DNA of 64,000 bases from the IMG/VR virus record IMGVR_UViG_3300045988_157791; one strand, 5' to 3'. The DNA is from a virus. Lineage: Duplodnaviria > Heunggongvirae > Uroviricota > Caudoviricetes. A program made the position numbers and the translations under genes. Under the pieces are notes generated by a model. It was given only the letters and a program-made list of their open reading frames with translations, was not told where the DNA came from and did not search any database. The first letter of the stretch is position 1, and each line of letters starts with the position of its first letter. This document shows, piece after piece, positions 3,741 through 61,592 of the stretch.

Positions 3741-5315
3741 TCACTCGTTCTCTTGAGTAGATGAGTCCCCATTCCCTCGGGGTTGATCTTGCCCGCTTTC
3801 TTGGGCTGCACCACGATCATAAGTAAGTACTGACTTATTTTCAAGGGTATTTAGATCATTTTTTGGAGGAAAATTCAAGAGATCTTTATCAAATTCCTTT
3901 TTCATCGCCTCAGTAATGTTCGGGAAAATCTTCTCAATAAGCATTTCCATCTGGTGACGACGTACAGAGTCCGGTGCCTGAAGTAATGACAGTTTCTCGG
4001 CAACAGAAAATTCATCAGTAAGGCCACGAATATCGAAACTTTCTGGATATGCAATTAAAGAGTGGTCTTCGTCCAGATCTACCCCCATCCATTTCGCAAC
4101 CAGTAGCATGATTTGGCGTTCAGCCCTTTCCAGACGCTCTGCTTTTGTGACAAGCAAGCTATTTACACGCTGGAAGTCATACATTTTTGCGGCACCAGAT
4201 GAATTATCGATTCCCTGTGCGTTGTCCTGCTTCGTTCGCTCACCAGCTACACCAACTGAATGGTAGATTTCGTTAATCACCGTCTTAATCGTAGTGATGA
4301 TCATCTGAGCTTGTTTCGGGTCTGGTGACAGATAAAACGGCTGGTTTCCACCTTCAGAATCGTAGGTGAAGACTCGCTTTGTGCCCATTTCAAGCACTTT
4401 AGTGTGGTTTTCATCACCAGGTAAAAGCGACTGTACCGGTATAGCCAACTGGCTAAATGTCTGATCCTGAATAATGGCATCAAGGTTTGACAGATAGTTT
4501 GCAACCGCACGATCAAGATAAGCGATATCATCGATCAACGATGGGCTGAAATACGGTGATTCACTTTCTCCAATACAATCAACAGGAAACACAGGAACTA
4601 CGCCGAGATTATGCTCACCGCTATCCTCTAAAATAACTTTTGCCTGACGGCGACCTGCTCCACCAGCGCCCTTCTTCACTTCCTCACGGAACAGATACCA
4701 CTCGTTTTGTGTCCACAGACGATAACGTTGGTATTCCTGACCTGTAGAAGTAAAAGGATCTGCGTCATCACGAGCGACTTCCACAATTAACGCCCACAAC
4801 ATATTCCCGTCGTCGTCCCATGCCACATCCAGCATTTGCTGAGGTGAAATCCAGTAGGCGTAGGCGCGAGCATCTTTCTTTTTCTCGTCAGCTACTGACT
4901 CAACATCACCACTCATCGTGCTATCGACAACAACCCATATGCGACCGTAAATAGACGACTGCAAATCAATAGCGGCCATAAATGAGTCAATAGAGGCATT
5001 CTGGCGAGTCGCACGTTTCCAGAAATTGCGGATCTGCTCTGGTGCCTCTTCGATATTTCTATGAATGTCTTCTTTAAAGAGATATTTGTTGATGAGGTTT
5101 ACCACCTCACGAGTGTGGTTGAAGCGATAAGCACGTTCAACTCGCTCCTTAAACTCCTGATCTCCCTCTTTAAAGTAACGAAAGATATTGTCTGTAAACC
5201 AACCACGCCCGCCAGCGTAAGTGCTGGCGAGGAAGTCCCAATGTTCTTTTTTCTTTTCGTATTCCGGGTGGCGTCGCGCCACCAGATCCTTAATTTGTTT
5301 GTCGTTCAATTCCAT
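3741..5315 (-). CDS. putative portal protein
   Basis: 524 aa ORF immediately downstream of large terminase; size and position typical of portal. Confidence 0.5.
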   Translation of the reverse strand: MELNDKQIKDLVARRHPEYEKKKEHWDFLASTYAGGRGWFTDNIFRYFKEGDQEFKERVERAYRFNHTREVVNLINKYLFKEDIHRNIEEAPEQIRNFWKRATRQNASIDSFMAAIDLQSSIYGRIWVVVDSTMSGDVESVADEKKKDARAYAYWISPQQMLDVAWDDDGNMLWALIVEVARDDADPFTSTGQEYQRYRLWTQNEWYLFREEVKKGAGGAGRRQAKVILEDSGEHNLGVVPVFPVDCIGESESPYFSPSLIDDIAYLDRAVANYLSNLDAIIQDQTFSQLAIPVQSLLPGDENHTKVLEMGTKRVFTYDSEGGNQPFYLSPDPKQAQMIITTIKTVINEIYHSVGVAGERTKQDNAQGIDNSSGAAKMYDFQRVNSLLVTKAERLERAERQIMLLVAKWMGVDLDEDHSLIAYPESFDIRGLTDEFSVAEKLSLLQAPDSVRRHQMEMLIEKIFPNITEAMKKEFDKDLLNFPPKNDLNTLENKSVLTYDRGAAQESGQDQPRGNGDSSTQENE

Positions 5316-5341
5316 TTGAATAACCTTAGATAATTACTTAC

Positions 5342-6598
5342 CTATCGAGAACCACCAAGAATAACACGGTTTTTGACTGGATACCTACGATGTACTGGAT
5401 AGCCCAATGCGTCTGCACTATGCTCAATGCCACCTGTCTTATCCATATCTCGTGTTCCAGGCTTGTAGATGACTTTTTCCAGTGAATCAATCAAATGCTT
5501 GCACTTCGGATCGATATACAGCCGGATATCTCCAGATGCGGACATCAGCATTCGGTTAACAGCATTAACACGATCCGCAATTGGCGGGTGCTTTTTCGAA
5601 TAATCGACACGTAAGAATCCCTTCTCTTTGAATATGTCTACGTCAGACTCCCCACGAGCATGTTGGCGATAAGCACCTGCCGGATCTGGAAATACCGTTA
5701 CCTGTGATTTCCAGCGCCAGAAGCGTCTCTCAAGCTCATCACAAACTTCTGCCGTGTTAGAGGAAAAGAGCACCAATTCATCAATTGCCCATAGCTCACC
5801 ATTTGGCTGAGGTTGCAAAATTACTGAAGACATCGGGTCAATGTTGAAGTCCTGCCCTACCCATATAGGCAACCGAGGGTTGAACTGAAGCGGTTTTACA
5901 TGCACGTTACGATCGAACGGGTAGTAAACGCGCCCGGACATGTTCTCAAAGCTGGCCAGGTACTCCTGAGCGAACGATTTGGGGTCCATATCGTTCTTAG
6001 CAGCTTCAATTTCCGCCGTAGGTACAAACGGAGAATCGGCAGTTACAAACTGCCAGCTCTTCCACTGTCCCTTTCTTTGCAGCTCTACGTTCTGGCCTAT
6101 AGTCCACAGTTTGTGAAATTCCGAGAAGCCTTTTGGCGTACCAATGATCAGTGCACCGCCGCGTGTCGATGAAAGAGTAGGTCGTAACACCTTGTACCAG
6201 GTGTCAGCCTTCATATCCTGAAATTCATCAAGCACTACAAAATGCAACGCTACGCCGCGCAGAGTGTCAGGCTTATCAGCACCTTTGAGGGCGATCTCCG
6301 AACCGTTCTTCAACACGATTGTCATCGTGGTGTCGTTCTTTTTCCTAACCCACTTACGAGGCAGAACTTCCTGTAGATCGTCCCACAAAATCTGGCGAGC
6401 CATCTGGTAAGTAGGAGCGACATACCAGACCCTTTGCTTTTTTTCCTTTGCCGCCGCACGAATAATAGTGGAGATCGACAACCGGGATTTTCCCCAGCGT
6501 CGACCAGCACAAACAACTTTAAATCGATGCGGAGACTGGAAGACTTTCATCTGTCCAGAATGCAGTTGCACAAGACTGAGCGAGGACGGGATTGCCAT
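5342..6598 (-). CDS. terminase large subunit
   Basis: Walker A-like VVCAGRRWGKSRLS near N-terminus, followed by nuclease-like C-terminal half; stop/start coupled with small subunit. Confidence 0.7.
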   Translation of the reverse strand: MAIPSSLSLVQLHSGQMKVFQSPHRFKVVCAGRRWGKSRLSISTIIRAAAKEKKQRVWYVAPTYQMARQILWDDLQEVLPRKWVRKKNDTTMTIVLKNGSEIALKGADKPDTLRGVALHFVVLDEFQDMKADTWYKVLRPTLSSTRGGALIIGTPKGFSEFHKLWTIGQNVELQRKGQWKSWQFVTADSPFVPTAEIEAAKNDMDPKSFAQEYLASFENMSGRVYYPFDRNVHVKPLQFNPRLPIWVGQDFNIDPMSSVILQPQPNGELWAIDELVLFSSNTAEVCDELERRFWRWKSQVTVFPDPAGAYRQHARGESDVDIFKEKGFLRVDYSKKHPPIADRVNAVNRMLMSASGDIRLYIDPKCKHLIDSLEKVIYKPGTRDMDKTGGIEHSADALGYPVHRRYPVKNRVILGGSR

Positions 6599-7230
6599 TA
6601 TTCGTCCTCCCCTTCACTTCCAACATCTGTCGCATCAAATTCGCTTAGAGCTTCTTCTTCCAACGTCTCAAGCAATTCGTCATCGATGATTTCAGGCTCG
6701 TCGTCTTCCTGACGTAATTTCGCCACCTGGGAAGGCGTAAGCTCACCAAATACCAGGTTCGGAATTTCTTCCTCGTCATTTTCCGCATGATCCATGCCCA
6801 ATGCTTTGGACGAAACTTCAAAGCATTTTGCAAGGGTATTACTGGCTCTCTGTAAGCTCTTGAGAGAATCCTCAATCGCCCCTAAAGGCTTACCCTCACG
6901 TTTGGCCGTAGTGACTTCGACCATCACCATCTGCCCCAACGCATACGCCCAGCCGTCATAACGTGTACGACGTTCTTCTATCTTTTCCGCACGGGCTTTA
7001 GCGCGAAGCTCTGCGTCAGATTTAAGAGACTCACGAACCATCTTCCCAACAGAGTCCGCGCCTTTCTCTAATCCTCGCTTTTTGAAATGTCTGGAGAGTG
7101 TTTCACGACGAATGCCGTACTCTTCCTCCAGCTTTGAGAGTGTATATTCGCCTGACGTCCATTTGGCTTCAGCTTCGGCCCACTCCGCTGGTGTCAGGCG
7201 AGTTTTTACCTCGTCTTTTTCGACCGTCAT
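6598..7230 (-). CDS. putative terminase small subunit
   Basis: 210 aa, N-terminal HTH-like segment, acidic C-terminus, directly upstream of and overlapping large terminase. Confidence 0.45.
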   Translation of the reverse strand: MTVEKDEVKTRLTPAEWAEAEAKWTSGEYTLSKLEEEYGIRRETLSRHFKKRGLEKGADSVGKMVRESLKSDAELRAKARAEKIEERRTRYDGWAYALGQMVMVEVTTAKREGKPLGAIEDSLKSLQRASNTLAKCFEVSSKALGMDHAENDEEEIPNLVFGELTPSQVAKLRQEDDEPEIIDDELLETLEEEALSEFDATDVGSEGEDE

Positions 7231-7344
7231 AGATCCCTCTAAAACACACAGAGCGCGTCCATGCGCTCTAAAACAACTTGTTTACTGCATCTGCTAACCA
7301 ACTTGTTTTCTGGGGTGTTTAATTAGGTCTGGCATGTCTTACGA

Positions 7345-7405
7345 AGCCTGCTTCCGTATATATTTAATAAGTTACTTATTATTTATATATACAGATGCAG
7401 GTCTT
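7345..7405. repeat. long hairpin with AT-rich loop (copy 1 of 2)
   Basis: GCCTGCTTCCGTATAT...ATATATACAGATGCAGG inverted repeat; near-identical element at 37366-37425. Confidence 0.5.
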
Positions 7406-7425: not shown

Positions 7426-7692
7426 TTACATCACCAGTAACTTCGCTTTGGCTCGACCTAAAGTGGTTAACCCAAGAGTCCGGCGGTGATAGCGATTGTC
7501 ACTGCGTTGGCGCGTATGCCCTTTCTCCACCAGCCCCTTTTTTATCAGAGCGCGAATTGAGAACTGGATACTTTGCTTGGTTGTCTTGTACGGCAAAACT
7601 TCAAGCAATTCGTCCAGGTCAAGTAGATGACCTCGCTCATAACCGAGATTGAGCGTTTTGATGATGTCCTTTTGTTTATCGGTTAACGTCAT
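7426..7692 (-). CDS. small putative DNA-binding protein (winged-helix-like)
   Basis: 88 aa, basic; first gene of tightly coupled operon 7426-10617. Confidence 0.3.
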   Translation of the reverse strand: MTLTDKQKDIIKTLNLGYERGHLLDLDELLEVLPYKTTKQSIQFSIRALIKKGLVEKGHTRQRSDNRYHRRTLGLTTLGRAKAKLLVM

Positions 7693-7701
7693 GGCAAATC
7701 C

Positions 7702-8592
7702 TTATGCCGGTAAAGCAATTTCTAACGGTTTATCCAAAGGTTGTTTGTCGAATGCCAGCAGTGGCAGCGTGTCAGGCAGTCGACGGCCAAAGTCAGGGTT
7801 TCGGTACACACCATACAACGGAGACGTAAAGCTCAGGTTGTGAATGTCCTTGAGCAGCTTCACAATGCTGGCCTCGTCCACCAGACTGTCGGCAATGTCC
7901 TGAATCGTCGTGCCACGATTCCGCCCAGCTTTTGCCAGGGAACTGTTCTTGTGGTAGTCCGCCACCAGATCACGCAGTGCACGGCGACGACGAGACTCGC
8001 TCATAGCGAACAACTCTTTGACGATCGCCTCGTTATCACCCGGGTCGGAGCGGAAATGGCGCTGGAACACACGCAGTGCACTTTCATAGCTCTTCGGTCG
8101 CTCAGGGCGGATGAACTTAAACCCTGCTTTCATGGCGAAGGGATTGTATTTGCTCATCGATGACTGGATCTCAATGATTGGCCGGTCATGCATCCTGCTA
8201 ACCAGGTTAATCATTCGATAAGAGACGCCTACGCCACGATACTGAGTATCCACAACTGAGCGACTGATCACCGCAAAGTTGTTATTCACGTACCGACCCC
8301 AGTACTGGTTAGCCACGGTGGTATTAGTGGTTGGTTTCAACTTAGGAAACATGCGGTGGCGAGGTGCCAGCAGTAGTTTCGGATAAGCCATAACCACGAC
8401 GCCCACCAGACGGTCATCAAGTTCGCAGCGATAGTAAGTTGGCGCGAAAGGTTTGCCGTCTGTTTTGTAGTGAAGCGACTTAAGAGCGTGCCAGTCCTCT
8501 ACAGTTCCCTTTGTGACTGTCATTCGTTCCAGAAAGTCCAGATGACGCGGAAACTCTTCAGGGCGGTAGCGTTTAATGATGATGTCCGTCAT
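7702..8592 (-). CDS. hypothetical protein with GNAT-like motif
   Basis: 296 aa; AVISRSVVDTQYRGVGVSYRMINLV resembles GNAT motif A (R-x-x-G-x-G); weak. Confidence 0.3.
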   Translation of the reverse strand: MTDIIIKRYRPEEFPRHLDFLERMTVTKGTVEDWHALKSLHYKTDGKPFAPTYYRCELDDRLVGVVVMAYPKLLLAPRHRMFPKLKPTTNTTVANQYWGRYVNNNFAVISRSVVDTQYRGVGVSYRMINLVSRMHDRPIIEIQSSMSKYNPFAMKAGFKFIRPERPKSYESALRVFQRHFRSDPGDNEAIVKELFAMSESRRRRALRDLVADYHKNSSLAKAGRNRGTTIQDIADSLVDEASIVKLLKDIHNLSFTSPLYGVYRNPDFGRRLPDTLPLLAFDKQPLDKPLEIALPA

Positions 8593-9254
8593 GAATGGAC
8601 CTCATCATGACTACCATTGTGATATTCCACCTTCACGCGTTCTTTGTAGTGCTTGGTGATCTGCATATCCGGGCGCAGCGCGTTCTTCAGGTCTTCGTGA
8701 GTCGTCGCCACCATTACCGTCGCACCAACCTTTCGAGCGGCACGCTGGAGGTTAGATGCCACAACCTGAGCGGTTACACGGTCTAAAACAGCACCGAACT
8801 CGTCAGCAGCCCACACTTTAGCGCCTGACTCAATCAGTTTGGCAATCTTGAGACGATATTTCTGACCGTCTGACATTTCAGAAGGCTTGCGAACAAACAG
8901 ATATGCATCGTTCAGACCAGCCATAGATAACAATCCAAGCGCATCACTGGTCGTTTTGCCCAACTGATCGATGACGTTAACCTCATTATCGAAGGTAAAA
9001 TCATCGATGGAGGCTACAGACAGCCCTTCATCCTTCATCTGTCGTTGCAACTCGCGCAGCACAACGGATTTGCCGGAACCGGATTGGCCGGTGATGTACA
9101 CCACATCGCCCTGCTTCACTTCCAGCTCCAGATTGTCGTAAAGCGTCCACTCTTTTTCGTCCAGACCAAGCCCGAACGACTCAGCGATTTCCAACGTGCG
9201 CGTGGTTTTATTTACGCGTGTCTGAAACGATACGTTGATGATGTATTTGCTCAT
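8589..9254 (-). CDS. ABC-type ATPase
   Basis: Walker A GQSGSGKS, signature-like MSDGQKYRL, Walker B VWAADEF, H-loop ATTHED; 4-nt overlaps with neighbours. Confidence 0.65.
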   Translation of the reverse strand: MSKYIINVSFQTRVNKTTRTLEIAESFGLGLDEKEWTLYDNLELEVKQGDVVYITGQSGSGKSVVLRELQRQMKDEGLSVASIDDFTFDNEVNVIDQLGKTTSDALGLLSMAGLNDAYLFVRKPSEMSDGQKYRLKIAKLIESGAKVWAADEFGAVLDRVTAQVVASNLQRAARKVGATVMVATTHEDLKNALRPDMQITKHYKERVKVEYHNGSHDEVHS

Positions 9255-9952
9255 GCAGCCATCTCCCCGGAAGAGATCTTCTCCGCATATGCCACAAATG
9301 CGTCTACCCCGCTTTCTCCCGTCATTTCTTCCATGTGGGCAAGCAAATCACCAACAACAATGGCAGAGCCAGCAGGAAGCGTTTTAAAGCCCAATACGTC
9401 GACAACACGTACTTCTTCCGCTGCAACTTCACGACTGATCTCGGTGTGTTCATCCTTCTGTCGTTTAGTTTCTTCGCCAAGATCGATAACTAGCGAGTCG
9501 GTGTCCATTTCTTCTGTCATACTGCCAACGAGAACATTCAACTCACGCTCTTCAAAGCCGAAAACCTCGATATCGTCCAGAACAAGCGACTCAAGCTCTT
9601 TCTGTAGCTTAATTGCATCGTAATCAATGCTGGCAAGTCGGTTATCTTCAAGGCGCTTCGCACGAACCTCGTCATCACTGAGATCATCGCGAACAATAAC
9701 CGGTACGCGCTCAAGTCCAGCAAAAATTGCAGCCTCACGGCGGCCATGACCAGTAATAATTACGTCGTTCTTATCGACCGTAATTGGCTGGTCAAATCCG
9801 CGCTTTTTAATGGCTGCGGCCAGATCTCTGATCTGCTGTTCATCATGCTTTTTGGCATTCATCTCATAGGGAATAAGATCTGCCGGGTCGCGATATACGA
9901 TTTCAAACTTTTTGGTCATTACATACGCTCCTTGTAGTAGTCGACCAGCCAC
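9251..9952 (-). CDS. ParB N-terminal (ParB/Srx) domain protein
   Basis: ITGHGRREAA motif characteristic of ParB-N nuclease/NTPase-like domain. Confidence 0.55.
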   Translation of the reverse strand: MAGRLLQGAYVMTKKFEIVYRDPADLIPYEMNAKKHDEQQIRDLAAAIKKRGFDQPITVDKNDVIITGHGRREAAIFAGLERVPVIVRDDLSDDEVRAKRLEDNRLASIDYDAIKLQKELESLVLDDIEVFGFEERELNVLVGSMTEEMDTDSLVIDLGEETKRQKDEHTEISREVAAEEVRVVDVLGFKTLPAGSAIVVGDLLAHMEEMTGESGVDAFVAYAEKISSGEMAA

Positions 9953-10617
9953 ACCAGAGCCTCACCAGCGTTCTCCATTTCATTACCGGTGTTAATAGCC
10001 TGCTCTTTGATGATGTTTTTTATGGTTTCTGCAACACGATCTGACGCATCGAAAGTTACTTTGAAGCGCATGGTCTGATGTTCCGCACCCACACGTTCGG
10101 TTTTCTCTCGTTTGTCGGTATCGACAGGCTCATCACTACCACGAGACAACGCCTCCAGTGCTTCAAGGTCGATTGCCGCCTCTTTTGCTAAAACCATCGA
10201 GATTTCGTCGTCATACGGGGCGATTTCAGACAGTTGATAGTCAAGTTCTGACTGAATTTCTTCAATGAAGCGTTGCAATGCGATTTGGTCGTCTTCACCG
10301 TATCGCTCGTTGTCCACCAGTGACATCTGTTTAGCTACGACATCGCTAATTTTGCCCACAGAAAGCACCGGAACCGTTGAAATTCCTTGCTCAATAGCGG
10401 CACGCCAGCGATGTTCGCCGCCGAGGATTTCAAAAAATCCATCTTCAAGTTCACGAGCCAAAATTGGCTTAAAAAAGCCCAATTTTTCGATAGAACCTTT
10501 CAGTTTTTCAAAATTCTGCGCACCAACCGAATTGGTGTTCCAGGTATTCGGGCGAAGGTTGGCAACATCAACCTGCAAAATCGTGATTTTTACATCCATT
10601 TTATTGCTACAATCCAC
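9919..10617 (-). CDS. ParB N-terminal (ParB/Srx) domain protein, second paralogous domain
   Basis: ILGGEHRWRAA motif; overlaps start of previous gene. Confidence 0.55.
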   Translation of the reverse strand: MDCSNKMDVKITILQVDVANLRPNTWNTNSVGAQNFEKLKGSIEKLGFFKPILARELEDGFFEILGGEHRWRAAIEQGISTVPVLSVGKISDVVAKQMSLVDNERYGEDDQIALQRFIEEIQSELDYQLSEIAPYDDEISMVLAKEAAIDLEALEALSRGSDEPVDTDKREKTERVGAEHQTMRFKVTFDASDRVAETIKNIIKEQAINTGNEMENAGEALVWLVDYYKERM

Positions 10618-10681
10618 TAAGTAATCACTTACTTATTATAATAGCCAAATAACATACAAAAGGCACTAAGGAAAGAGGTTT

Positions 10682-12241
10682 ATGACTGTTCGGATTGTAT
10701 CTAACGCAGTAAATGCGCTTATTTCTGGCGCAGATGACAAGGTAAAGCAACTGGTGCAGCAAATGTTGAGCTACGAAGTCGAGACTGGCGACTGGAAGGG
10801 CACAAGCACGATGTTCAACTGGAGTAAAAACTCGTTCCCTGCTGGCTTTGCCAAGCCTGTAGCGGCGAACTTGAACAAGGCGGGCATCAAATGTGTTCAT
10901 ATCCGCAAAGACAAAGCCCCGGCGCTTGGAAAGCCAAATCCGGCGGTTAACCCATTCCCATACAATCCTGATTATGCGTATCAGGATCAGACTGTGGAAA
11001 CACTAGTTCGCGAGGGAATGATGATTGCGCAGATCGCTACTGGTGGCGGGAAATCTAATGTTGCCTGCAAAGCAGCTGCACGTATCGGTCGAATGACATT
11101 ATTTTTAACAACCCGCTCTGTTCTGATGTTTCAAATGGCCGAAAACTTCCAGAGATCCATCGACTACCGCGCCAAAAATGGCGAACCGTGGTTAAAAGAC
11201 CAAAAGGTTGGAGTCATTGGCTCGGGTGAGTTCCAGGTATCACGACATATCAACGTCGCTACAGTTCAAACTCTGGCAAGTTTCCTTGAAGAACCACCAC
11301 GCGATGCAACACCAGATAAGAAGAGCTACCACCTCAAACGTCGGGACTTGGTGAAACGCTTCCTTTCAAGTGTGTCTCTGCTTATTCTGGAAGAGGCGCA
11401 TGAGTCTTCAGGCTCTAATTTCTATGACATCGCCAGATTATGTGTGAACGCAGACTATCGTCTGGCGCTTACAGCCACGCCGTTCATGAAGGATTCTACA
11501 GAAGCCAACATGCGTCTGATGGCTGTGGCCGGGCGAATTGAAATTAAAGTCACAGAAAAGTACCTGATTGATCGAGGCATTCTGGCAAAACCGTACTTCC
11601 TTTATCATAAAGTTGCTTACAAGCCAGACGAGGTCAGAATCAAGGCGGAACTTGCCAACAAACACCTTAATTTTAGAGTAGGTATGAGCACTGCCTACCA
11701 AAAGGCTTATCAGTTGGGGATCGTGTATAATTTGGGACGTAACGAGGCCATTGTGCGCGAAGCATTGCTCTATAAGCAACATTCTCTCAATTGTATGACT
11801 CTGGTTCGTCTTAAACGCCACGGGCAAATCCTGATGGAGATGATGAAGGAGTCCGGCCTTAGAGTTGACTTCATTTATGGGGAATCGAACCAGGCGACAA
11901 GGCAAGCAAAGCTGAACAGTTTAGCGTCTGGCGAAATAGATGTTTTAATAGGCTCGACTATTCTGGATGTCGGTGTTGATGTGCCAAGCGTGGGCGCGGT
12001 CATTCTTGCTGGTGGTGGGAAAGCAGAAGTTGAAATGAGACAGCGTGTCGGTCGTGGCTTACGAGCAAAAAAAAATCAGGCAAACGTGTGTTTTATCACT
12101 GATTTCATTGACATTAGCAACAAATACCTGTTGTCTCACTCTTATGAGCGAAAACACATCATCGACACCACACCTGGCTTTGCAGAAGGTGTATTGCCTA
12201 TTGATGGCGCATTCGATTTTGGAGTTCTGAAACGAGATTAG
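10682..12241 (+). CDS. SF2 DEAD/DEAH-box helicase
   Basis: Walker A TGGGKS, motif II LILEEAHE, motif III TATP, motif VI QRVGRGLR; RBS AAGGAAAGAGG upstream. Confidence 0.7.
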   Translation: MTVRIVSNAVNALISGADDKVKQLVQQMLSYEVETGDWKGTSTMFNWSKNSFPAGFAKPVAANLNKAGIKCVHIRKDKAPALGKPNPAVNPFPYNPDYAYQDQTVETLVREGMMIAQIATGGGKSNVACKAAARIGRMTLFLTTRSVLMFQMAENFQRSIDYRAKNGEPWLKDQKVGVIGSGEFQVSRHINVATVQTLASFLEEPPRDATPDKKSYHLKRRDLVKRFLSSVSLLILEEAHESSGSNFYDIARLCVNADYRLALTATPFMKDSTEANMRLMAVAGRIEIKVTEKYLIDRGILAKPYFLYHKVAYKPDEVRIKAELANKHLNFRVGMSTAYQKAYQLGIVYNLGRNEAIVREALLYKQHSLNCMTLVRLKRHGQILMEMMKESGLRVDFIYGESNQATRQAKLNSLASGEIDVLIGSTILDVGVDVPSVGAVILAGGGKAEVEMRQRVGRGLRAKKNQANVCFITDFIDISNKYLLSHSYERKHIIDTTPGFAEGVLPIDGAFDFGVLKRD

Positions 12242-14442: not shown

Positions 14443-14964
14443 ATGGTTAAAGACATCACCTACGGCATACCGGCTGAAGTCTGGCCGCGAGACTACGAAC
14501 ATGCTGAAAACATACTTATGTTCTGGCGGAAGAACAACATTCCTGTAAGAGTCACGCTTGAAGACGGTCAGGTGTTTTGCATGTACGTTCAGGGGACAAT
14601 GCCTTCCCGCAATAAGCTAGATTTATGCCCGCTTCCATATGATAAAGAAAATCGTATAAGACTCCCACTTGAGCGCATTAGCACAATTGAATCAGGTGTA
14701 ATCGATGGCATTGCTCGCGAGTTCAAAGGTAGGCTAACAATACATCCAGACTATGTTGACAATCAGCCATCACGCCGTGACTTTTTTGCGATATGTCGCA
14801 AGGCTTATCAAAACGACCAATCTATAAGGGTCTACATGGCAGACGGTCGTGAAATAGAAGGGGTGTCAAGAGGCGTTGATGCTTGTCAGGTCACTCTTAA
14901 GTTAGAAGACGGCAGAAAAATACTTGTTTTCTTCGATTGGGTTGAACGAATCCTTCCATTTTAA
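14443..14964 (+). CDS. hypothetical protein with internal duplicated small beta-rich motif
   Basis: 173 aa; IPVRVTLEDGQVF and VTLKLEDGRKILVF repeated segments (Rof/Sm-like pattern, weak); TATAAT at ~14409 upstream. Confidence 0.4.
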   Translation: MVKDITYGIPAEVWPRDYEHAENILMFWRKNNIPVRVTLEDGQVFCMYVQGTMPSRNKLDLCPLPYDKENRIRLPLERISTIESGVIDGIAREFKGRLTIHPDYVDNQPSRRDFFAICRKAYQNDQSIRVYMADGREIEGVSRGVDACQVTLKLEDGRKILVFFDWVERILPF

Positions 14965-22894: not shown

Positions 22895-24928
22895 TTACTT
22901 AACCTGGTGGCCAGGTTTAGCACCAGCATCCGGGCTTAACAGGAAGATATCTTTCCCGCCGGGGCCAGCAGCCATCACCATGCCTTCAGAGATACCGAAG
23001 CGCATTTTACGTGGTGCCAGGTTAGCCACCATAATGGTGTGACGACCAATCAGTGCCTGCGGATCCGGGTAGGCAGAACGAATACCGGAGAAGACATTGC
23101 GTTTTTCACCGCCGAGATCCAGTGTCAGGCGCAGCAGTTTGTCAGAACCTTCAACAAACTCTGCGTTTTCGATCAGCGCTACGCGCAGGTCAACTTTGGC
23201 GAAGTCGTCAAAGGTGATGGTTTCCTGAATCGGATCATCTGCCAGTGGGCCAGTAACTGGCGCGGCAGCTGCTTTCACTTCTTCTTTAGACGCTTCCACC
23301 AGTGCTTCAACCTGCTTCATATCGATGCGGTTATACAGTGCCTTGAACGGATTTACTTTATGGCCCAGCAGCGGTTGCTGGATACCATCCCAGGTCAGTT
23401 CTGTATTCAGGAATGCTTCTGCACGTTCAGTCAGTTTCGGCAGTACCGGCTTCAGGTACGTCATCAGCACGCGGAACAGGTTAATGCCCATAGAGCAAAT
23501 CGCCTGCAGATCGGCATCGCGTCCTTCCTGCTTCGCCACCACCCACGGAGCCTGTTCATCGACATAGCGGTTAGCCAGGTCAGCCAGTGCCATGATTTCA
23601 CGGATAGCTTTACCAAATTCGCGGCTTTCCCACGCTTCACCAATCACTTCAGCGGCATCAGTGAAGGTTTTGTACAACTGCGGGTCAGCCAGCTCGCTTG
23701 CCAGCACACCGTCAAAACGCTTATTGATAAAGCCAGCGTTACGGGACGCCAGGTTAACCACTTTGTTCACGATATCGGCATTCACACGCTGAACGAAATC
23801 CTCCAGGTTGAGATCGATATCATCAATGCGCGAAGAGAGTTTCGCAGTGTAGTAGTAACGCAGGCTGTCAGCGTCAAAATGATTCAGCCAGGTGCTGGCT
23901 TTAATAAAGGTGCCGCGAGACTTGGACATCTTCGCGCCGTTCACCGTCACATAGCCATGAACAAACAGGTTGGTCGGCTTGCGGAAGTTGCTGCCTTCCA
24001 GCATGGCAGGCCAGAACAGGCTGTGGAAGTAAACGATATCTTTACCGATGAAGTGGTACAGCTCGGCGGTGGAGTCTTTCTTCCAGTATTCATCGAAGCT
24101 TACGCTGTCGCCGCGCTTGTCGCACAGATTCTTGAAAGAACCCATGTAGCCAATCGGTGCGTCCAGCCAGACGTAGAAATATTTGCCCGGCGCGTTCGGA
24201 ATTTCAAAACCGAAGTAAGGGGCGTCGCGGGAGATATCCCACTGTTGCAGGCCAGATTCAAACCACTCCTGCATTTTATTTGCCACCTGCTCCTGCAACG
24301 CACCGCTGCGGGTCCATGCCTGCAACATTTCGCTGAAAGAGGGCAGATCAAAGAAGAAGTGTTCAGAATCACGCATTACCGGCGTAGCACCAGAAACCAC
24401 CGATTTCGGTTCAATCAGTTCAGTCGGGCTGTAGGTCGCGCCGCAGACTTCACAGTTATCGCCGTATTGATCTGGCGCTTTACATTTCGGGCAGGTGCCT
24501 TTCACAAAACGGTCCGGCAGGAACATGCCTTTTTCCGGATCGTACAGCTGAGAGATGGTGCGGTTTTTAATAAAACCGTTTTCTTTCAGGCGAGAGTAGA
24601 TAAGTTCTGACAACTGGCGGTTCTCTTCGCTGTGCGTCGAGTGATAGTTGTCATAGCTGATGTTAAAGCCTGCGAAATCAGTCTGATGTTCCTGACTCAT
24701 TTCGCCAATCATCTGCTCCGGTGTGATACCAAGCTGCTGAGCTTTAAGCATGATCGGCGTGCCGTGGGCATCGTCGGCGCAGATGAAGTTGACCTCGTGG
24801 CCGCGCATTCGCTGGTAACGGACCCAGACATCAGCCTGGATGTGCTCCAGCATATGGCCGAGGTGGATTGAGCCGTTAGCGTACGGCAGCGCGCACGTCA
24901 CCAGAATTTTCTTCGCGACTTGGGTCAT
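22895..24928 (-). CDS. metG: methionine--tRNA ligase
   Basis: 677 aa from [26 protein letters not shown] (HIGH motif) ... KMSKS ... C-terminal tRNA-binding domain; near-identical to Escherichia MetG as recalled; ORF-track N-terminal 43 aa extension rejected. Confidence 0.95.
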
Positions 24929-25085
24929 AGTAGGCATTACTTCTTTGTAGTGAAAAGGGGCTTGATAGTAACAAAATGGCCTTATGTCTGCCATGTGATA
25001 ACAGCATTTCTCATAAATGATTAAATGTCGTAGCTGGAGTACACTACAAGGCGACAATTGCGCAAATTAAAATAAAGGAGACGGG

Positions 25086-26186
25086 ATGAGCGAGTCCAAA
25101 TCGCCGGATGCCCTGAGAGCAATGGTAGCCGGTACGCTGGCTAATTTTCAGCACCCAACCCTGAAACACAACCTGACTACGCTTAAAGCGTTACACCATG
25201 TTGCGTTGATGGATGACACACTGCATGTCGAACTAATCATGCCTTTCGTGTGGAATAAGCCTTTTGAAGACCTGAAAGAGCAATGTAGTGGTGATCTGCT
25301 CCGTATCACTGGCGCAAAGGCTATTGACTGGAAGCTGTCGTACAACATTGCCACGCTTAAGCGCGTCAAAAACCAACCAGGCATTAATGGCGTTAAGAAC
25401 ATTATCGCCGTCAGCTCAGGCAAGGGCGGCGTAGGTAAATCCTCCACGGCGGTAAATCTGGCACTGGCGTTGGCTGCTGAAGGTGCGAAAGTTGGTATTT
25501 TGGATGCCGATATCTATGGTCCATCAATTCCAACCATGCTGGGCGCGGAAAACCAACGTCCAACCTCACCGGACGGTACTCACATGGCACCTATCATGTC
25601 TCATGGCCTGGCAACCAACTCTATTGGTTATCTGGTCACCGACGACAATGCAATGGTGTGGCGTGGACCGATGGCCAGCAAGGCGCTGATGCAGATGTTG
25701 CAGGAAACTCTATGGCCTGATCTGGACTATCTCGTTCTCGATATGCCGCCGGGCACTGGTGATATTCAGTTGACGCTGGCGCAGAACATTCCTGTAACTG
25801 GTGCGGTTGTGGTAACTACGCCGCAAGACATCGCGCTGATCGATGCGAAGAAAGGCATTGTGATGTTCGAAAAAGTCGAAGTGCCGGTACTGGGTATCGT
25901 CGAAAACATGAGTGTGCATATTTGCAGTAACTGCGGTCATCACGAGCCAATTTTTGGCACCGGTGGCGCACAGAAACTGGCCGAGAAATACAACACGCAG
26001 TTGTTAGGCCAAATGCCACTTCATATCTCTCTTCGTGAAGATCTGGATAACGGAACACCAACCGTTATTAGTCGTCCAGATAGCGAATTTACGGCTATTT
26101 ATCGTGACCTCGCAGATCGCGTTGCTGCCCAAATGTATTGGCAAGGTGAAGTAATACCTGGCGAAATCGCATTCCGCGCAGTGTGA
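25086..26186 (+). CDS. apbC: Mrp/ApbC Fe-S cluster carrier ATPase
   Basis: P-loop SGKGGVGKS, CxxC (CSNCGH); divergent from metG as in the enterobacterial chromosome. Confidence 0.9.
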   Translation: MSESKSPDALRAMVAGTLANFQHPTLKHNLTTLKALHHVALMDDTLHVELIMPFVWNKPFEDLKEQCSGDLLRITGAKAIDWKLSYNIATLKRVKNQPGINGVKNIIAVSSGKGGVGKSSTAVNLALALAAEGAKVGILDADIYGPSIPTMLGAENQRPTSPDGTHMAPIMSHGLATNSIGYLVTDDNAMVWRGPMASKALMQMLQETLWPDLDYLVLDMPPGTGDIQLTLAQNIPVTGAVVVTTPQDIALIDAKKGIVMFEKVEVPVLGIVENMSVHICSNCGHHEPIFGTGGAQKLAEKYNTQLLGQMPLHISLREDLDNGTPTVISRPDSEFTAIYRDLADRVAAQMYWQGEVIPGEIAFRAV

Positions 26187-37365: not shown

Positions 37366-37425
37366 AGCCTGCTTCCGTATATTAATAATTAATATGTAGT
37401 TATTTATATATACAGAAGCAGGCTA
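37366..37425 (-). terminator. long hairpin with AT-rich loop (copy 2), probable terminator of methylase gene
   Basis: GCCTGCTTCCGTATAT...ATATATACAGAAGCAGGC; on minus strand followed by GTTTTGTAT. Confidence 0.45.
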
Positions 37426-37445: not shown

Positions 37446-38039
37446 CTAAGCAGCCTTCTTTGATGGTCTTTTTTTCCTGATCACATTCGCAGGATCATAC
37501 CCTCCCAGACTTTTCATGACGTCCAAAGGGATCTTGCTTATAGAGTGCCCAGCGTCCTGACAGAATCCTCGAAAAACAACGAGCATACTGCCACCTGGGT
37601 TGATGTTTACTTCTACCTGACCCAGATTGACGTCAGGCTCGACAAACGCTACGCGGCCACCAGACAGAATAATCGTCTCATTCGCACACTCTGTTGCACG
37701 CTCATACCACTTTGTATCTAGGGATTGAGGAATTAGCATCACTGTTGTAACTCCGCGAGCCTGCTCACGTATAGCCGCATCAATCCAGGGGGAGATTTTG
37801 GAGTAGGGTGGATTGAGGAAGGCAATTGTACCTGGCTGTCCCCATTCAGATTTCAAAGCATCACGCTCAACGCCTATGAAATTAGGCAGCTTTGCATTGT
37901 CCTTGTTGCAGGCAACGTCAACATCAAATGTCACTCCAAGATAACGTTGAATGGCAGAAAACAGCCAGTCAGGTGTTCTCCAGAGGTCACGAAGAGAGTT
38001 GTCGCGCTTTCGCTGTTTGATTTTTTCGGCTGCAATCAT
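37446..38039 (-). CDS. phage-type N6-adenine DNA methyltransferase (Dam-like)
   Basis: 197 aa with WRTPDWLF and FLNPPYS motifs. Confidence 0.7.
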   Translation of the reverse strand: MIAAEKIKQRKRDNSLRDLWRTPDWLFSAIQRYLGVTFDVDVACNKDNAKLPNFIGVERDALKSEWGQPGTIAFLNPPYSKISPWIDAAIREQARGVTTVMLIPQSLDTKWYERATECANETIILSGGRVAFVEPDVNLGQVEVNINPGGSMLVVFRGFCQDAGHSISKIPLDVMKSLGGYDPANVIRKKRPSKKAA

Positions 38040-40238: not shown

Positions 40239-40883
40239 CTAATGAACGGTCACTCGGCCACAGAACCGGTTTTCTATCTTTTCTACAGCGTTATCTAGCA
40301 TTCTCATCACTGATCTGGCTCTTGCTTCAACCGTGCGATATCGGTTGGAAACGACGAAGGTTTGCAGATCTCCCCTTTGCGGATGCAGGTGAATTTTTGT
40401 CAGTTCCCCGCACATCAACGCATCAATACGAGCGACATACAGACGGTCTAATGATGCTCGTTGTGATCGCAAGTAATCTCGCTCTGAGAGAGCGACTCCC
40501 GGGCGTAAGCCAGCAATGGCGTTAAAGTTTGAAATAGCAGTTTTGTGGCAAAACTTTTCGATATCGAGGGCTAACTCAATACACCGATCTTCATTTGTAT
40601 GGCCGACCAAATCCAACGTGTAGGCCATAACATCAGCAGGTGTGCGATCGATAACAAAGCCTTCAACACCACGCGTAAGTAGCTCTATATGCTTTGCTAT
40701 TTCCATTTGAATCTGAAGCCGCTCATATAGAGGCATAGAATCACCTACTCGAACACCGAGGCGGCTCATCAAACTTCCGACACCAGCATCCACGTAAGGG
40801 ATTCCGTAATGTTTGTCGATATATTTAGCCAGGGTTGTTTTCCCACTGCCCTGAGCACCAGTGATCCCAATCCGGTAATCCAT
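40239..40883 (-). CDS. P-loop NTPase, putative nucleoside/nucleotide kinase
   Basis: Walker A GITGAQGSGKTTLAK at N-terminus; context among nucleotide-metabolism genes. Confidence 0.45.
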   Translation of the reverse strand: MDYRIGITGAQGSGKTTLAKYIDKHYGIPYVDAGVGSLMSRLGVRVGDSMPLYERLQIQMEIAKHIELLTRGVEGFVIDRTPADVMAYTLDLVGHTNEDRCIELALDIEKFCHKTAISNFNAIAGLRPGVALSERDYLRSQRASLDRLYVARIDALMCGELTKIHLHPQRGDLQTFVVSNRYRTVEARARSVMRMLDNAVEKIENRFCGRVTVH

Positions 40884-52428: not shown

Positions 52429-53073
52429 TTACAGCGCGTCAGTGGGCTTTTTACGCGCTGCATTTATGCTTATGACGCCAGCTTTAGGACGTGGATCGAC
52501 AAGGTTCAGTTCTTCTTCGCTATGGTATTCAAGGTCGAACTCACGTTTTACATGTCTGATGTAGATTGCAGTGAGCAGGCTATCTTTGGTCAGGAAGTGT
52601 CCGTAGGATTTGCGGATCACTTCTTCAACCTTCTCGATTTTCTCACCACCCATGCAGAGGTGATTAAACCGGCTGTGTTTCCGCAACATCTCGTCAACTG
52701 GGCCTGAGTAAACCTTGTCTACTTTCCCAAAACGAATGATTTTTCCTGTATCTGCGGATACAAGGCAAATCAGTTTGTCTGGTGATAAACGATCTCGCCA
52801 CGTTACTCCTGAACGGAGTGTGTTGAAGTAGGGCGCATCCAATCCGATGATCGGTTTACGAAATGCGAGCAATGGAACGTACCTGATACAACTATTCAAA
52901 TGAAAGTTCACACCAGCCTTATCAAGTTTAATTCTGGTTTCGTAGATCGGGCACTTCGCCGCTATACCGCAGATATCACAAAGTAACTTCTGCTTATTCA
53001 GGTTGGAATTTGATTCGATAGTGTAGGAGCCGTCCTCAAGACGACGAACCCAGCGCGTGCGTTTTAGATCCAT
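52429..53073 (-). CDS. hypothetical protein adjacent to replication origin
   Basis: 214 aa ORF. Confidence 0.35.
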   Translation of the reverse strand: MDLKRTRWVRRLEDGSYTIESNSNLNKQKLLCDICGIAAKCPIYETRIKLDKAGVNFHLNSCIRYVPLLAFRKPIIGLDAPYFNTLRSGVTWRDRLSPDKLICLVSADTGKIIRFGKVDKVYSGPVDEMLRKHSRFNHLCMGGEKIEKVEEVIRKSYGHFLTKDSLLTAIYIRHVKREFDLEYHSEEELNLVDPRPKAGVISINAARKKPTDAL

Positions 53074-56400: not shown

Positions 56401-56455
56401 GTGTTTTTCCTTTTGTGGTTAGTGTTTACTTATTTTGTTAGTTATGAATAGGCGA

Positions 56456-58007: not shown

Positions 58008-58099
58008 GTGTTTTCCTATGTGGTTGTTATGCGAAAATAATAAGTAAGTACTTATATATTTTCAAGAGATAAACAAGGCGTCCTGTGGACGCCTTGTGT

Positions 58100-61475: not shown

Positions 61476-61592
61476 GTGTTTCTCCTTGTTGTGATTTGGC
61501 CGATGGCGCTATGCGCGTTGGGCTTTCGTTCATTCGTGGCTCTTTCGAGCTGTTAAATGATAGATCAGTACTTACTTATTATCTATCAAAAA

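Follow-up and report, generated by a model that had tools for sequence, protein, structure and literature searches.

A 64,000-nucleotide stretch of DNA (IMG/VR record IMGVR_UViG_3300045988_157791; referred to as the window in the rest of the text), which is an Escherichia coli SSU5-like phage-plasmid, carries an operon of five minus-strand genes coding for two ParB/Srx-domain proteins, an ABC ATPase, a GNAT-fold protein and a small winged helix-turn-helix (wHTH) protein. Judged from their sequences, the genes of the ABC ATPase and of GNAT represent, in split form, the fused COG2401-type ABC ATPase-GNAT protein, which also occurs in unrelated phages, mostly next to a ParB-like gene. We tentatively propose that the operon codes for an ATP-dependent, ParB-assisted DNA acyltransferase system that would modify phage DNA after replication and before packaging.

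Organization and conservation of the operon

The listing of open reading frames (ORFs) verified five genes of the same direction at positions 7426-10617. ParB1 (9919-10599, with another possible start, a GTG, at 10617) is the first gene of the operon and is followed by its ParB/Srx paralogue ParB2 (9251-9919), a soluble ABC ATPase made up of the nucleotide-binding domain only (8589-9254), a 296-aa protein with the GNAT acyltransferase fold (7702-8592) and, as the last gene, a small and basic 88-aa winged-helix protein (7426-7692). The successive junctions read TAATG, ATGA and ATGA, then a 9-nt gap. The genes coding for TerS, TerL and the portal protein come after the operon (7230-3741), and a superfamily 2 (SF2) helicase gene diverges from it 64 bp upstream. 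The original prediction, made from the DNA letters alone, had described five tightly coupled minus-strand genes upstream of the terminase genes and divergent from an SF2 helicase; the ORF listing and the junctions agree with this layout, and all of the gene identities that it gave, including its guess of a GNAT protein, were correct.

The operon region is 98-99% identical in Escherichia phages Cyrano, PhiR41_1 and CMS-2020a, 85% identical in Salmonella phage SSU5 and 81% identical in Klebsiella phage-plasmids. It was found in 259 of 5,426 complete E. coli genomes, on plasmids every time, and in 792 PLSDB plasmids from Klebsiella, Escherichia, Enterobacter, Yersinia and Salmonella. Comparison of gene order in other phages, which the original prediction had suggested as a check, revealed that the order of a divergent helicase gene followed by ParB-ParB-ABC-GNAT-wHTH-TerS-TerL-portal is retained at ~40% protein identity in Pseudomonas phage nickie, Rhizobium phage RHEph10, Xanthomonas phage JGB6 and an Ectothiorhodospira contig, and that the combination of ParB and ABC-GNAT recurs in unrelated phages (see below). 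The five genes are a conserved operon of SSU5-type phage-plasmids and part of the near-universal core of this lineage.

All five proteins fall into populated phage families of PHROGs (phrog_723, phrog_930, phrog_293, phrog_886 and phrog_900), whose labels ('ParB-like', 'ABC transporter' or unknown) give no real function. RefSeq names two of the five genes, GNAT and wHTH, 'hypothetical' and one of the ParB proteins 'ParB/RepB/Spo0J family partition protein'. Searches of the five proteins against PADLOC and NCBIfam returned nothing specific: there was no significant full-length match to a PADLOC defence protein, only partial P-loop (mad3, mad8, PtuA) and ParB-domain (MTase_II) matches, and no operon protein matched the NCBIfam DpdB profile. 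Profile searches in PHROGs, RefSeq, PADLOC and NCBIfam thus placed the operon in no well-characterised module.

The ABC ATPase and GNAT proteins

As read from its translation, the ABC ATPase has intact Walker A (GQSGSGKS), signature (MSDGQ), Walker B (VWAADE) and H-loop (TTHED) motifs. The protein matched Pfam ABC_tran (PF00005, 5.8e-13) and phrog_293 (6e-59), its relatives in PDB are ABC nucleotide-binding domains, and it is homologous to the N-terminal half of the fused ABC-GNAT proteins of Jace, LE4, Axumite and pT24. A CbiA/ParA match (0.0014) fell below the cut-off. Family searches in Pfam and PHROGs, carried out without a transmembrane prediction, found no membrane or permease family among the five products. 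The ABC transporter label used in PHROGs and GenBank was rejected, as these searches showed no permease partner among them.

The GNAT protein is basic (isoelectric point [pI] 9.8) and has, between α4 and β6, a helical insertion of ~90 aa (residues ~169-255). Its match to a GNAT family reached E = 0.037 only. Motifs A (R119-x-x-G122) and B (KAGF) are conserved and the motifs for binding coenzyme A (CoA) are intact. With the GNAT-family profile, a set of 1.84 billion cluster representatives yielded 891 relatives. Many of these are 440-500 aa long, with the GNAT domain beginning near residue 200 and a Pfam ABC_tran domain in front of it. Because so many GNAT-family relatives, in phages and in archaea, carry ABC_tran in the same polypeptide, the two genes of the window, in which GNAT is directly coupled to the ABC ATPase, are best described as the split version of the COG2401-type fusion. 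JGI and GenBank label members of the family, including the SSU5-like GNAT gene, 'MK0520 protein, ABC-type ATPase fused to a predicted acetyltransferase domain', and the phrog_886 label of the GNAT gene, 'ABC transporter ATP-binding subunit', has been carried over from fused relatives.

The junction between ABC and GNAT is a hot-spot of insertion, and in relatives it holds between one and three small, unrelated ORFs, e.g. Phage_gp49_66, RyR domain or DUF2829 (1235-1489 of L002, which is SSU5_128; 8961-9999 of L003; 5646-5981 of L004; 5393-5895 of L005). Translational coupling of ABC and GNAT is therefore not obligatory.

The ParB and wHTH proteins

In ParB1, a ParB/Srx N-terminal domain (with GGEHRWRAA as box II and DNERY as box III) is joined through an acidic linker to a small C-terminal domain. 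ParB1 matched Pfam ParB_N (3.3e-13) and phrog_723 (2e-79) and aligned to Spo0J (1vz0) at boxes II and III. ParB2 (Pfam ParB_N, 1.5e-8; phrog_930, 1.2e-112) is of the methyltransferase-associated ParB/Srx type, with the motifs GHGRREAA and EDNR, and its next-best matches were phrog_498, a ParB-DNA methyltransferase family (5e-32), and PADLOC MTase_II (2.7e-17). Outside their own families, both proteins came closest to the ParB domains that phage DNA methyltransferases carry as fusions. In all relatives, both proteins retain the GxxR and DN motifs that belong to the ParB nucleotide-binding pocket, and G61, R64, D96 and N97 (ParB1 numbering) are invariant in both paralogues across distant relatives. 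In each protein, only the N-terminal domain matched ParB structures and profiles, the remainder being acidic (pI 4-5); the pI of the whole protein is 4.55 for ParB1 and 4.53 for ParB2. The C-terminal β-α-α segments were considered as ribbon-helix-helix DNA binders, a possibility disfavoured by segment pI values of 4.2-5.3.

The wHTH protein (pI 10.2) matched phrog_900 (1.9e-45) and, weakly, the LexA, Lrs14 and Sta1 wHTH domains. In the Ectothiorhodospira contig, nickie, RHEph10 and JGB6, an orthologue of this protein is encoded after GNAT. The wHTH protein is likely a DNA-binding specificity or regulatory subunit.

ABC-GNAT proteins with ParB-like neighbours in unrelated phages

A scan of viral contigs with the GNAT alignment recovered close SSU5-like relatives only (80-100% identity). 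The distant contexts were found by tblastn with the ABC protein and with gp86 of Rhodococcus phage Jace. Unrelated phages code for a fused ABC-GNAT protein (split in two cases), mostly with a ParB-like neighbour and usually in a late operon just upstream of the terminase. In Leptospira phage LE4, a ParB-like gene (gp14, by Pfam) and a fused ABC-GNAT gene (gp15) precede TerL, and in Gordonia phage Axumite a ParB-like gene (gp1, by annotation only and without a Pfam match), a fused ABC-GNAT gene (gp2) and a formyltransferase gene (gp3) precede the terminase. The pair of Pasteurella phage Pmp13, a ParB-like gene known by annotation and a fused ABC-GNAT homologue detected only by tblastn to Jace gp86, is placed as in a lambdoid late operon, with Q and the lysis genes preceding it and TerS following. 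Streptococcus pyogenes prophage Javan511 has a gene for a 172-aa 'DNA modification methylase', the ParB nature of which is assumed, then a split ABC/GNAT match and TerL. The module of SL25 also lies just upstream of the terminase.

Further phages carry ABC-GNAT in various contexts. Jace itself has a ParB gene (gp85, by Pfam), the fused ABC-GNAT gene gp86, an aspartate decarboxylase gene (gp87; PanD match, 2e-33) and a family III CoA-transferase gene (gp88), while Arthrobacter phage EastWest has a ParB gene (gp74, by Pfam) and a fused ABC-GNAT gene (gp75). In the Mu-like Burkholderia phage phiE255, a tail fibre gene is followed by a fused ABC-GNAT homologue (gp29, again by tblastn to Jace gp86 only) and a formyltransferase gene (gp30); mom of Mu likewise sits after the tail-fibre genes. 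Enterococcus phage 9184 has the order DNA polymerase, ABC, GNAT, with deoxynucleoside kinase genes nearby, and Nonlabens phage P12024S the order primase, fused ABC-GNAT, helicase. A ParB/Srx gene is thus a recurrent neighbour of ABC-GNAT in at least five unrelated phage lineages, counting Pmp13 and Axumite by annotation.

A formyltransferase of PurN size follows ABC-GNAT independently in Axumite and phiE255. Going by gene neighbourhood, the enzymes encoded in Jace (4447-7212 of record L090), Axumite (1-2452 of L088) and phiE255 (3956-5688 of L099) suggest lineage-specific acyl donors or tailoring steps, e.g. beta-alanyl or N-formyl. Among metagenomic proteins (P0204 and P0279, of 1260-1266 aa, with P0176, P0154 and P0165), ABC-GNAT was found fused to a complete family-B DNA polymerase, in 12 contigs of up to 73 kb, and to TFIIB repeats in Nitrososphaerota archaea. 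In one of the members, the ABC domain is interrupted by an intein that contains a LAGLIDADG domain.

Predicted acyl modification of DNA

The recurrent pairing of ParB with ABC-GNAT across lineages argues for acyl modification of a nucleic acid, most likely DNA, before packaging. The same reading is further suggested by the late or replication-proximal place of the module, its link to small-acyl-group enzymes and its fusion to DNA polymerase. A ParB-associated ABC ATPase-GNAT module was reportedly first predicted by Iyer, Zhang, Burroughs and Aravind in 2013 in Nucleic Acids Research. Where the Aravind group's later article takes up the ABC-GNAT pair, citing Iyer et al. 2013, it predicts that a base in DNA is acylated, a modification that it terms 'yet uncharacterized' (Iyer et al. 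2021, PMC7824862). The original prediction's statement that the operon has no obvious assigned function therefore stands as far as a characterised role detectable by profile searches is concerned, but a published functional prediction does exist. Among the candidate roles that it had listed, DNA modification is the one favoured by comparative context; anti-defence and a packaging-associated nuclease are weighed below as rivals. Our literature search, which included the names COG2401 and MK0520, found no experimental test of the ABC-GNAT module.

The operon resembles the predicted module in that ABC domain and GNAT form one unit, which is phage-borne and has a ParB/Srx neighbour. Unlike the COG2401-type fusion, the unit of the window consists of two translationally coupled genes, and its GNAT has the helical insertion of ~90 aa; the operon also has a pair of ParB paralogues where the predicted module has one, and a wHTH gene of its own. 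The ABC-GNAT kind of module is already known as a computational prediction and the sequence itself is not new; what is new here is a split, two-ParB, wHTH-bearing member.

In the mechanism that we envisage, GNAT would move an acyl or aminoacyl group from acyl-CoA (or from aminoacyl-tRNA, as Mom does) onto the exocyclic amine of a base, while a dimer of the ABC ATPase, powered by binding and hydrolysing ATP, would clamp onto the duplex or open it so that the base is presented. By analogy with the ParB protein of a phage thymine dioxygenase and with DpdB, the helper of DpdA, the two acidic ParB paralogues, with their NTP-binding motifs retained, could form a hetero-oligomeric activator or loader through which the enzyme reaches double-stranded DNA (dsDNA). 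The basic wHTH protein would serve in DNA targeting or autoregulation. The expected gain would be that injected DNA is shielded from host restriction.

Several known systems share parts of this scheme. Mom of phage Mu is a late-expressed GNAT that acylates deoxyadenosine (dA) in dsDNA (PMC13219725), converting it to N6-carbamoylmethyl-dA via Gly-tRNA, and it shares with the GNAT of the window the fold with a helical insertion, the phage origin and a late or packaging-proximal place. However, the two proteins show no relationship at the sequence level (10% identity), Mom acts alone without an ATPase or ParB, and a test of Mom-family membership by sequence gave no match of the window GNAT to the Mom profile. 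Two systems provide precedents for the ParB paralogues: a phage ParB activates a thymine DNA dioxygenase specifically on dsDNA (5mYOX176/ParB176; PMC13229309), and DpdB is a ParB-like ATPase required for base insertion into DNA in the deazaguanine system (with DpdA; PMC12839542). Like ParB1 and ParB2, these helpers combine a ParB-like NTP-binding domain with a C-terminal domain and lack an obvious DNA-binding domain. They are obligatory partners of an enzyme that modifies dsDNA, a role that ParB1 and ParB2 are predicted to share; they differ in that the partner in the window is GNAT with an ABC ATPase rather than a dioxygenase or transglycosylase, and in that there are two ParB paralogues. The ParB-domain DNA methyltransferases (phrog_498; PADLOC MTase_II, PDLC03229) have similar ParB domains and a similar place just upstream of the terminase, whereas the ParB proteins of the window have no methyltransferase domain and catalysis is predicted to be supplied in trans by GNAT. 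TmcA, the tRNA-Met cytidine N4-acetyltransferase, is an NTPase-coupled GNAT that, as proposed for the operon, acylates a nucleobase at its exocyclic amine within a structured nucleic acid; yet its ATPase is helicase-type and not ABC, it is a single polypeptide, its substrate is RNA and homology was not detected.

The basic character of both GNAT and the wHTH protein is in favor of DNA acyl modification. Against it count that no report of a modified base was found in the literature for SSU5 or its relatives, that no HTH or other DNA-binding domain was recognisable in ParB1 or ParB2, both of which are acidic, and that the locus has no acyl-donor genes. The presence of the SSU5-like module in a syntenic core adjoining the terminase at ~40% protein identity suits packaging equally. 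Restriction-resistant Stenotrophomonas phage DLP3 was considered and set aside as another type of phage without the ABC-GNAT module.

A broader claim, which we hold with more reserve, is that SSU5-type and unrelated phages with ParB and ABC-GNAT mark DNA bases with an acyl or aminoacyl group in a chemically new way, driven by ATP and with ParB paralogues as obligatory activators. This would be a third class of post-replicative hypermodification beside Mom and the 5-hydroxymethyldeoxyuridine pathways, possibly elaborated in some lineages by formyltransferase or beta-alanine/CoA-transferase enzymes. If so, common enterobacterial phage-plasmids, which often carry resistance genes, would shield their DNA by an undescribed base modification, with a bearing on host range, restriction evasion and the sequencing read-out of SSU5-type elements. 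The enzymology would be new as well, with a GNAT coupled to an ABC ATPase and working on duplex DNA, and there would be a further case of a ParB/Srx protein serving as activator of a DNA-modifying enzyme instead of as partition protein. The formyltransferase (twice), PanD with CoA-transferase (once) and the family-B polymerase fusions give concrete hypotheses on the transferred group. Should the prediction be wrong, the module would still be an unexplained, near-universal core of a phage lineage.

Alternative explanations

The acyltransferase could instead target a protein or RNA, either a DNA-bound host protein (nucleoid, RNA polymerase or defence) or tRNA, with ParB and the ABC ATPase localising or gating it. 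We consider this unlikely, since the persistent pairing with methyltransferase-type ParB/Srx and the fusions to family-B polymerase and TFIIB tie the module to DNA, and since a late place ahead of packaging is more in keeping with the marking of progeny DNA than with the takeover of the host, usually an early event. Slightly less likely still is an accessory packaging complex, in which the ParB-like proteins would be nucleases or DNA bridges, the ABC ATPase a motor at DNA ends or at cos/pac that aids the terminase, and GNAT would acetylate a packaging protein. The place of the module agrees with such a role, being directly upstream of TerS/TerL in SSU5-like phages at ~40% protein identity and terminase-proximal also in the unrelated LE4, Axumite, Pmp13, Javan511 and SL25. 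Phage DNA methyltransferases, however, also cluster just upstream of the terminase, and elsewhere ABC-GNAT is part of replication modules, follows tail fibres or is joined to family-B polymerase, far from the terminase. Moreover, the formyltransferase, PanD and CoA-transferase genes linked to it speak for small-group chemistry and not for DNA cutting. The end of the operon adjoins a large palindrome (7347-7401) inside which the GenBank records of SSU5 and Cyrano are linearised, which would suit such a complex; because a second copy follows the Dam gene, the palindrome is not a unique cos site, and this interpretation of it is weakened.

Anti-defence or inter-element conflict at the level of nucleotides appears improbable. 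ParB/Srx NTPases and the ABC ATPase would here deplete or alter pools of nucleotides or signals, or the system would acylate a deoxynucleoside triphosphate ahead of replication. ParB/Srx proteins of conflict systems have been proposed to be nucleotide degraders or nucleases (PMC10853773), the NTP-binding residues are invariant in both ParB paralogues, and the module of Enterococcus phage 9184 adjoins polymerase and deoxynucleoside kinase genes. Nevertheless, PADLOC gave only generic P-loop matches and similarity to ParB-methyltransferases, and the module is core and syntenic, unlike anti-defence islands, which are usually variable. Least probable by far is a plasmid partition system in which the ParB proteins would bind a centromere and work with an unusual ATPase, as two ParB_N proteins in an element living as a plasmid, and the RefSeq name of one of them, might suggest. 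We rejected this, in line with the original prediction that the operon is not a standard partition system. In comparison with type I ParABS, a ParA/MinD-type (deviant Walker A) ATPase partner is missing from the operon, whose ATPase is ABC-type with a ParA/CbiA match below threshold, both ParB proteins are acidic without a recognisable HTH, and a GNAT gene is translationally coupled inside the operon. ParB with ABC-GNAT also occurs in integrative or non-plasmid phages (Jace, Pmp13, S. pyogenes prophages). Finally, Cyrano (99% identical) has separate ParA and RepA genes elsewhere, outside the counterpart of the window, and partition and replication are therefore supplied outside the operon.

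Control region and palindromes

The divergent control region between ParB1 and the helicase gene spans 64 bp (10618-10681). A copy of ATAATAAGTAA at 10629-10639 (minus strand) lies in it, within the imperfect inverted repeat TAAGTAA-n4-TTACTTA. The motif (T)ATAATAAGTAA(GTACT) has 6 sites in the window against 1.05 expected: exact copies of ATAATAAGTAA are found at 7372-7382, 10629-10639, 58037-58047 and 61572-61582, and copies with one mismatch at 3816-3826 and 56426-56436. Most of the sites are intergenic and upstream of minus-strand genes, namely ParB1, TerS (7372-7382) and a gp32-like single-stranded DNA-binding protein gene. Each one sits in an imperfect inverted repeat of ATAAGTA half-sites, and the exact motif occurs in close relatives only. 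From its sequence and placement, ATAATAAGTAA may be a shared promoter or operator. Scans for sigma-70 promoters and terminators across the operon gave matches no more numerous than in shuffled sequence. A 91-aa ORF at 10625-10900 (minus strand), which overlaps the helicase start and the divergent control region and is unannotated in relatives, is probably spurious.

At the other end, the large palindrome or hairpin lies 25 nt past the stop codon of the wHTH gene. Its 17-nt arms are 88% complementary and its RNA fold has an energy of −29.4 kcal/mol (z = −7.2); it is likely the 3′ boundary of the operon. The first copy is downstream of the wHTH gene and the second, at 37368-37422, is downstream of the minus-strand Dam gene. 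The palindromic element measures ~55-95 nt, with arms CCTGCTTCCGTATATAT / ATATATACAGAAGCAGG and flanks AGGTCTGG; the arms are conserved in relatives and the loop is variable. A 47-bp match to the palindrome was found in an unrelated 204-kb plasmid (LC807807.1). Closer to the terminase genes, a terminator-like GC hairpin with a T-run at 7249-7270 (minus strand), 19 nt before the TerS start codon, is conserved in relatives, and an inverted pair AAAACAACTTGTTTA / TAACCAACTTGTTTT adjoins it (7270-7309). By its sequence features, this may be an antitermination or terminase-binding region.

Other genes of the window

The Dam-family N6-adenine methyltransferase gene at 37446-38039 (minus strand; PF05869, 2.5e-38) is a conventional DNA modification gene on the same element. 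A full-length methionyl-tRNA synthetase is encoded at 22895-25057 (minus strand; tRNA-synt_1g, 1.4e-165, with anticodon-binding and tRNA_bind domains); it is of possible interest because Mom-type GNATs take aminoacyl-tRNA as donor. An ASCH-domain protein annotated in Cyrano was considered as a reader or eraser of N4-acyl-cytosine and dropped, as Pfam found no match for window positions 52429-53073. The product of the gene at 40239-40883 (minus strand), annotated in Cyrano (CYRAN_75) as an 'ABC transporter ATP-binding protein', is an AAA_28 nucleoside-kinase-like P-loop protein, not an ABC protein, and is unrelated to the ABC ATPase of the operon; its gene lies within a nucleotide-metabolism cluster (DHFR, ThyX and ribonucleotide reductase). 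Similarly, the 'MinD' gene of Cyrano, at window positions 25086-26186 (plus strand), codes for an Mrp/NUBPL-type P-loop ATPase (PF10609, 2e-102) and not for a partition ParA. A low-GC accessory stretch at 12-16 kb contains a gene for a FljA-like 'repressor of phase-1 flagellin' at 14443-14964 (plus strand; PF03614, 5e-81).

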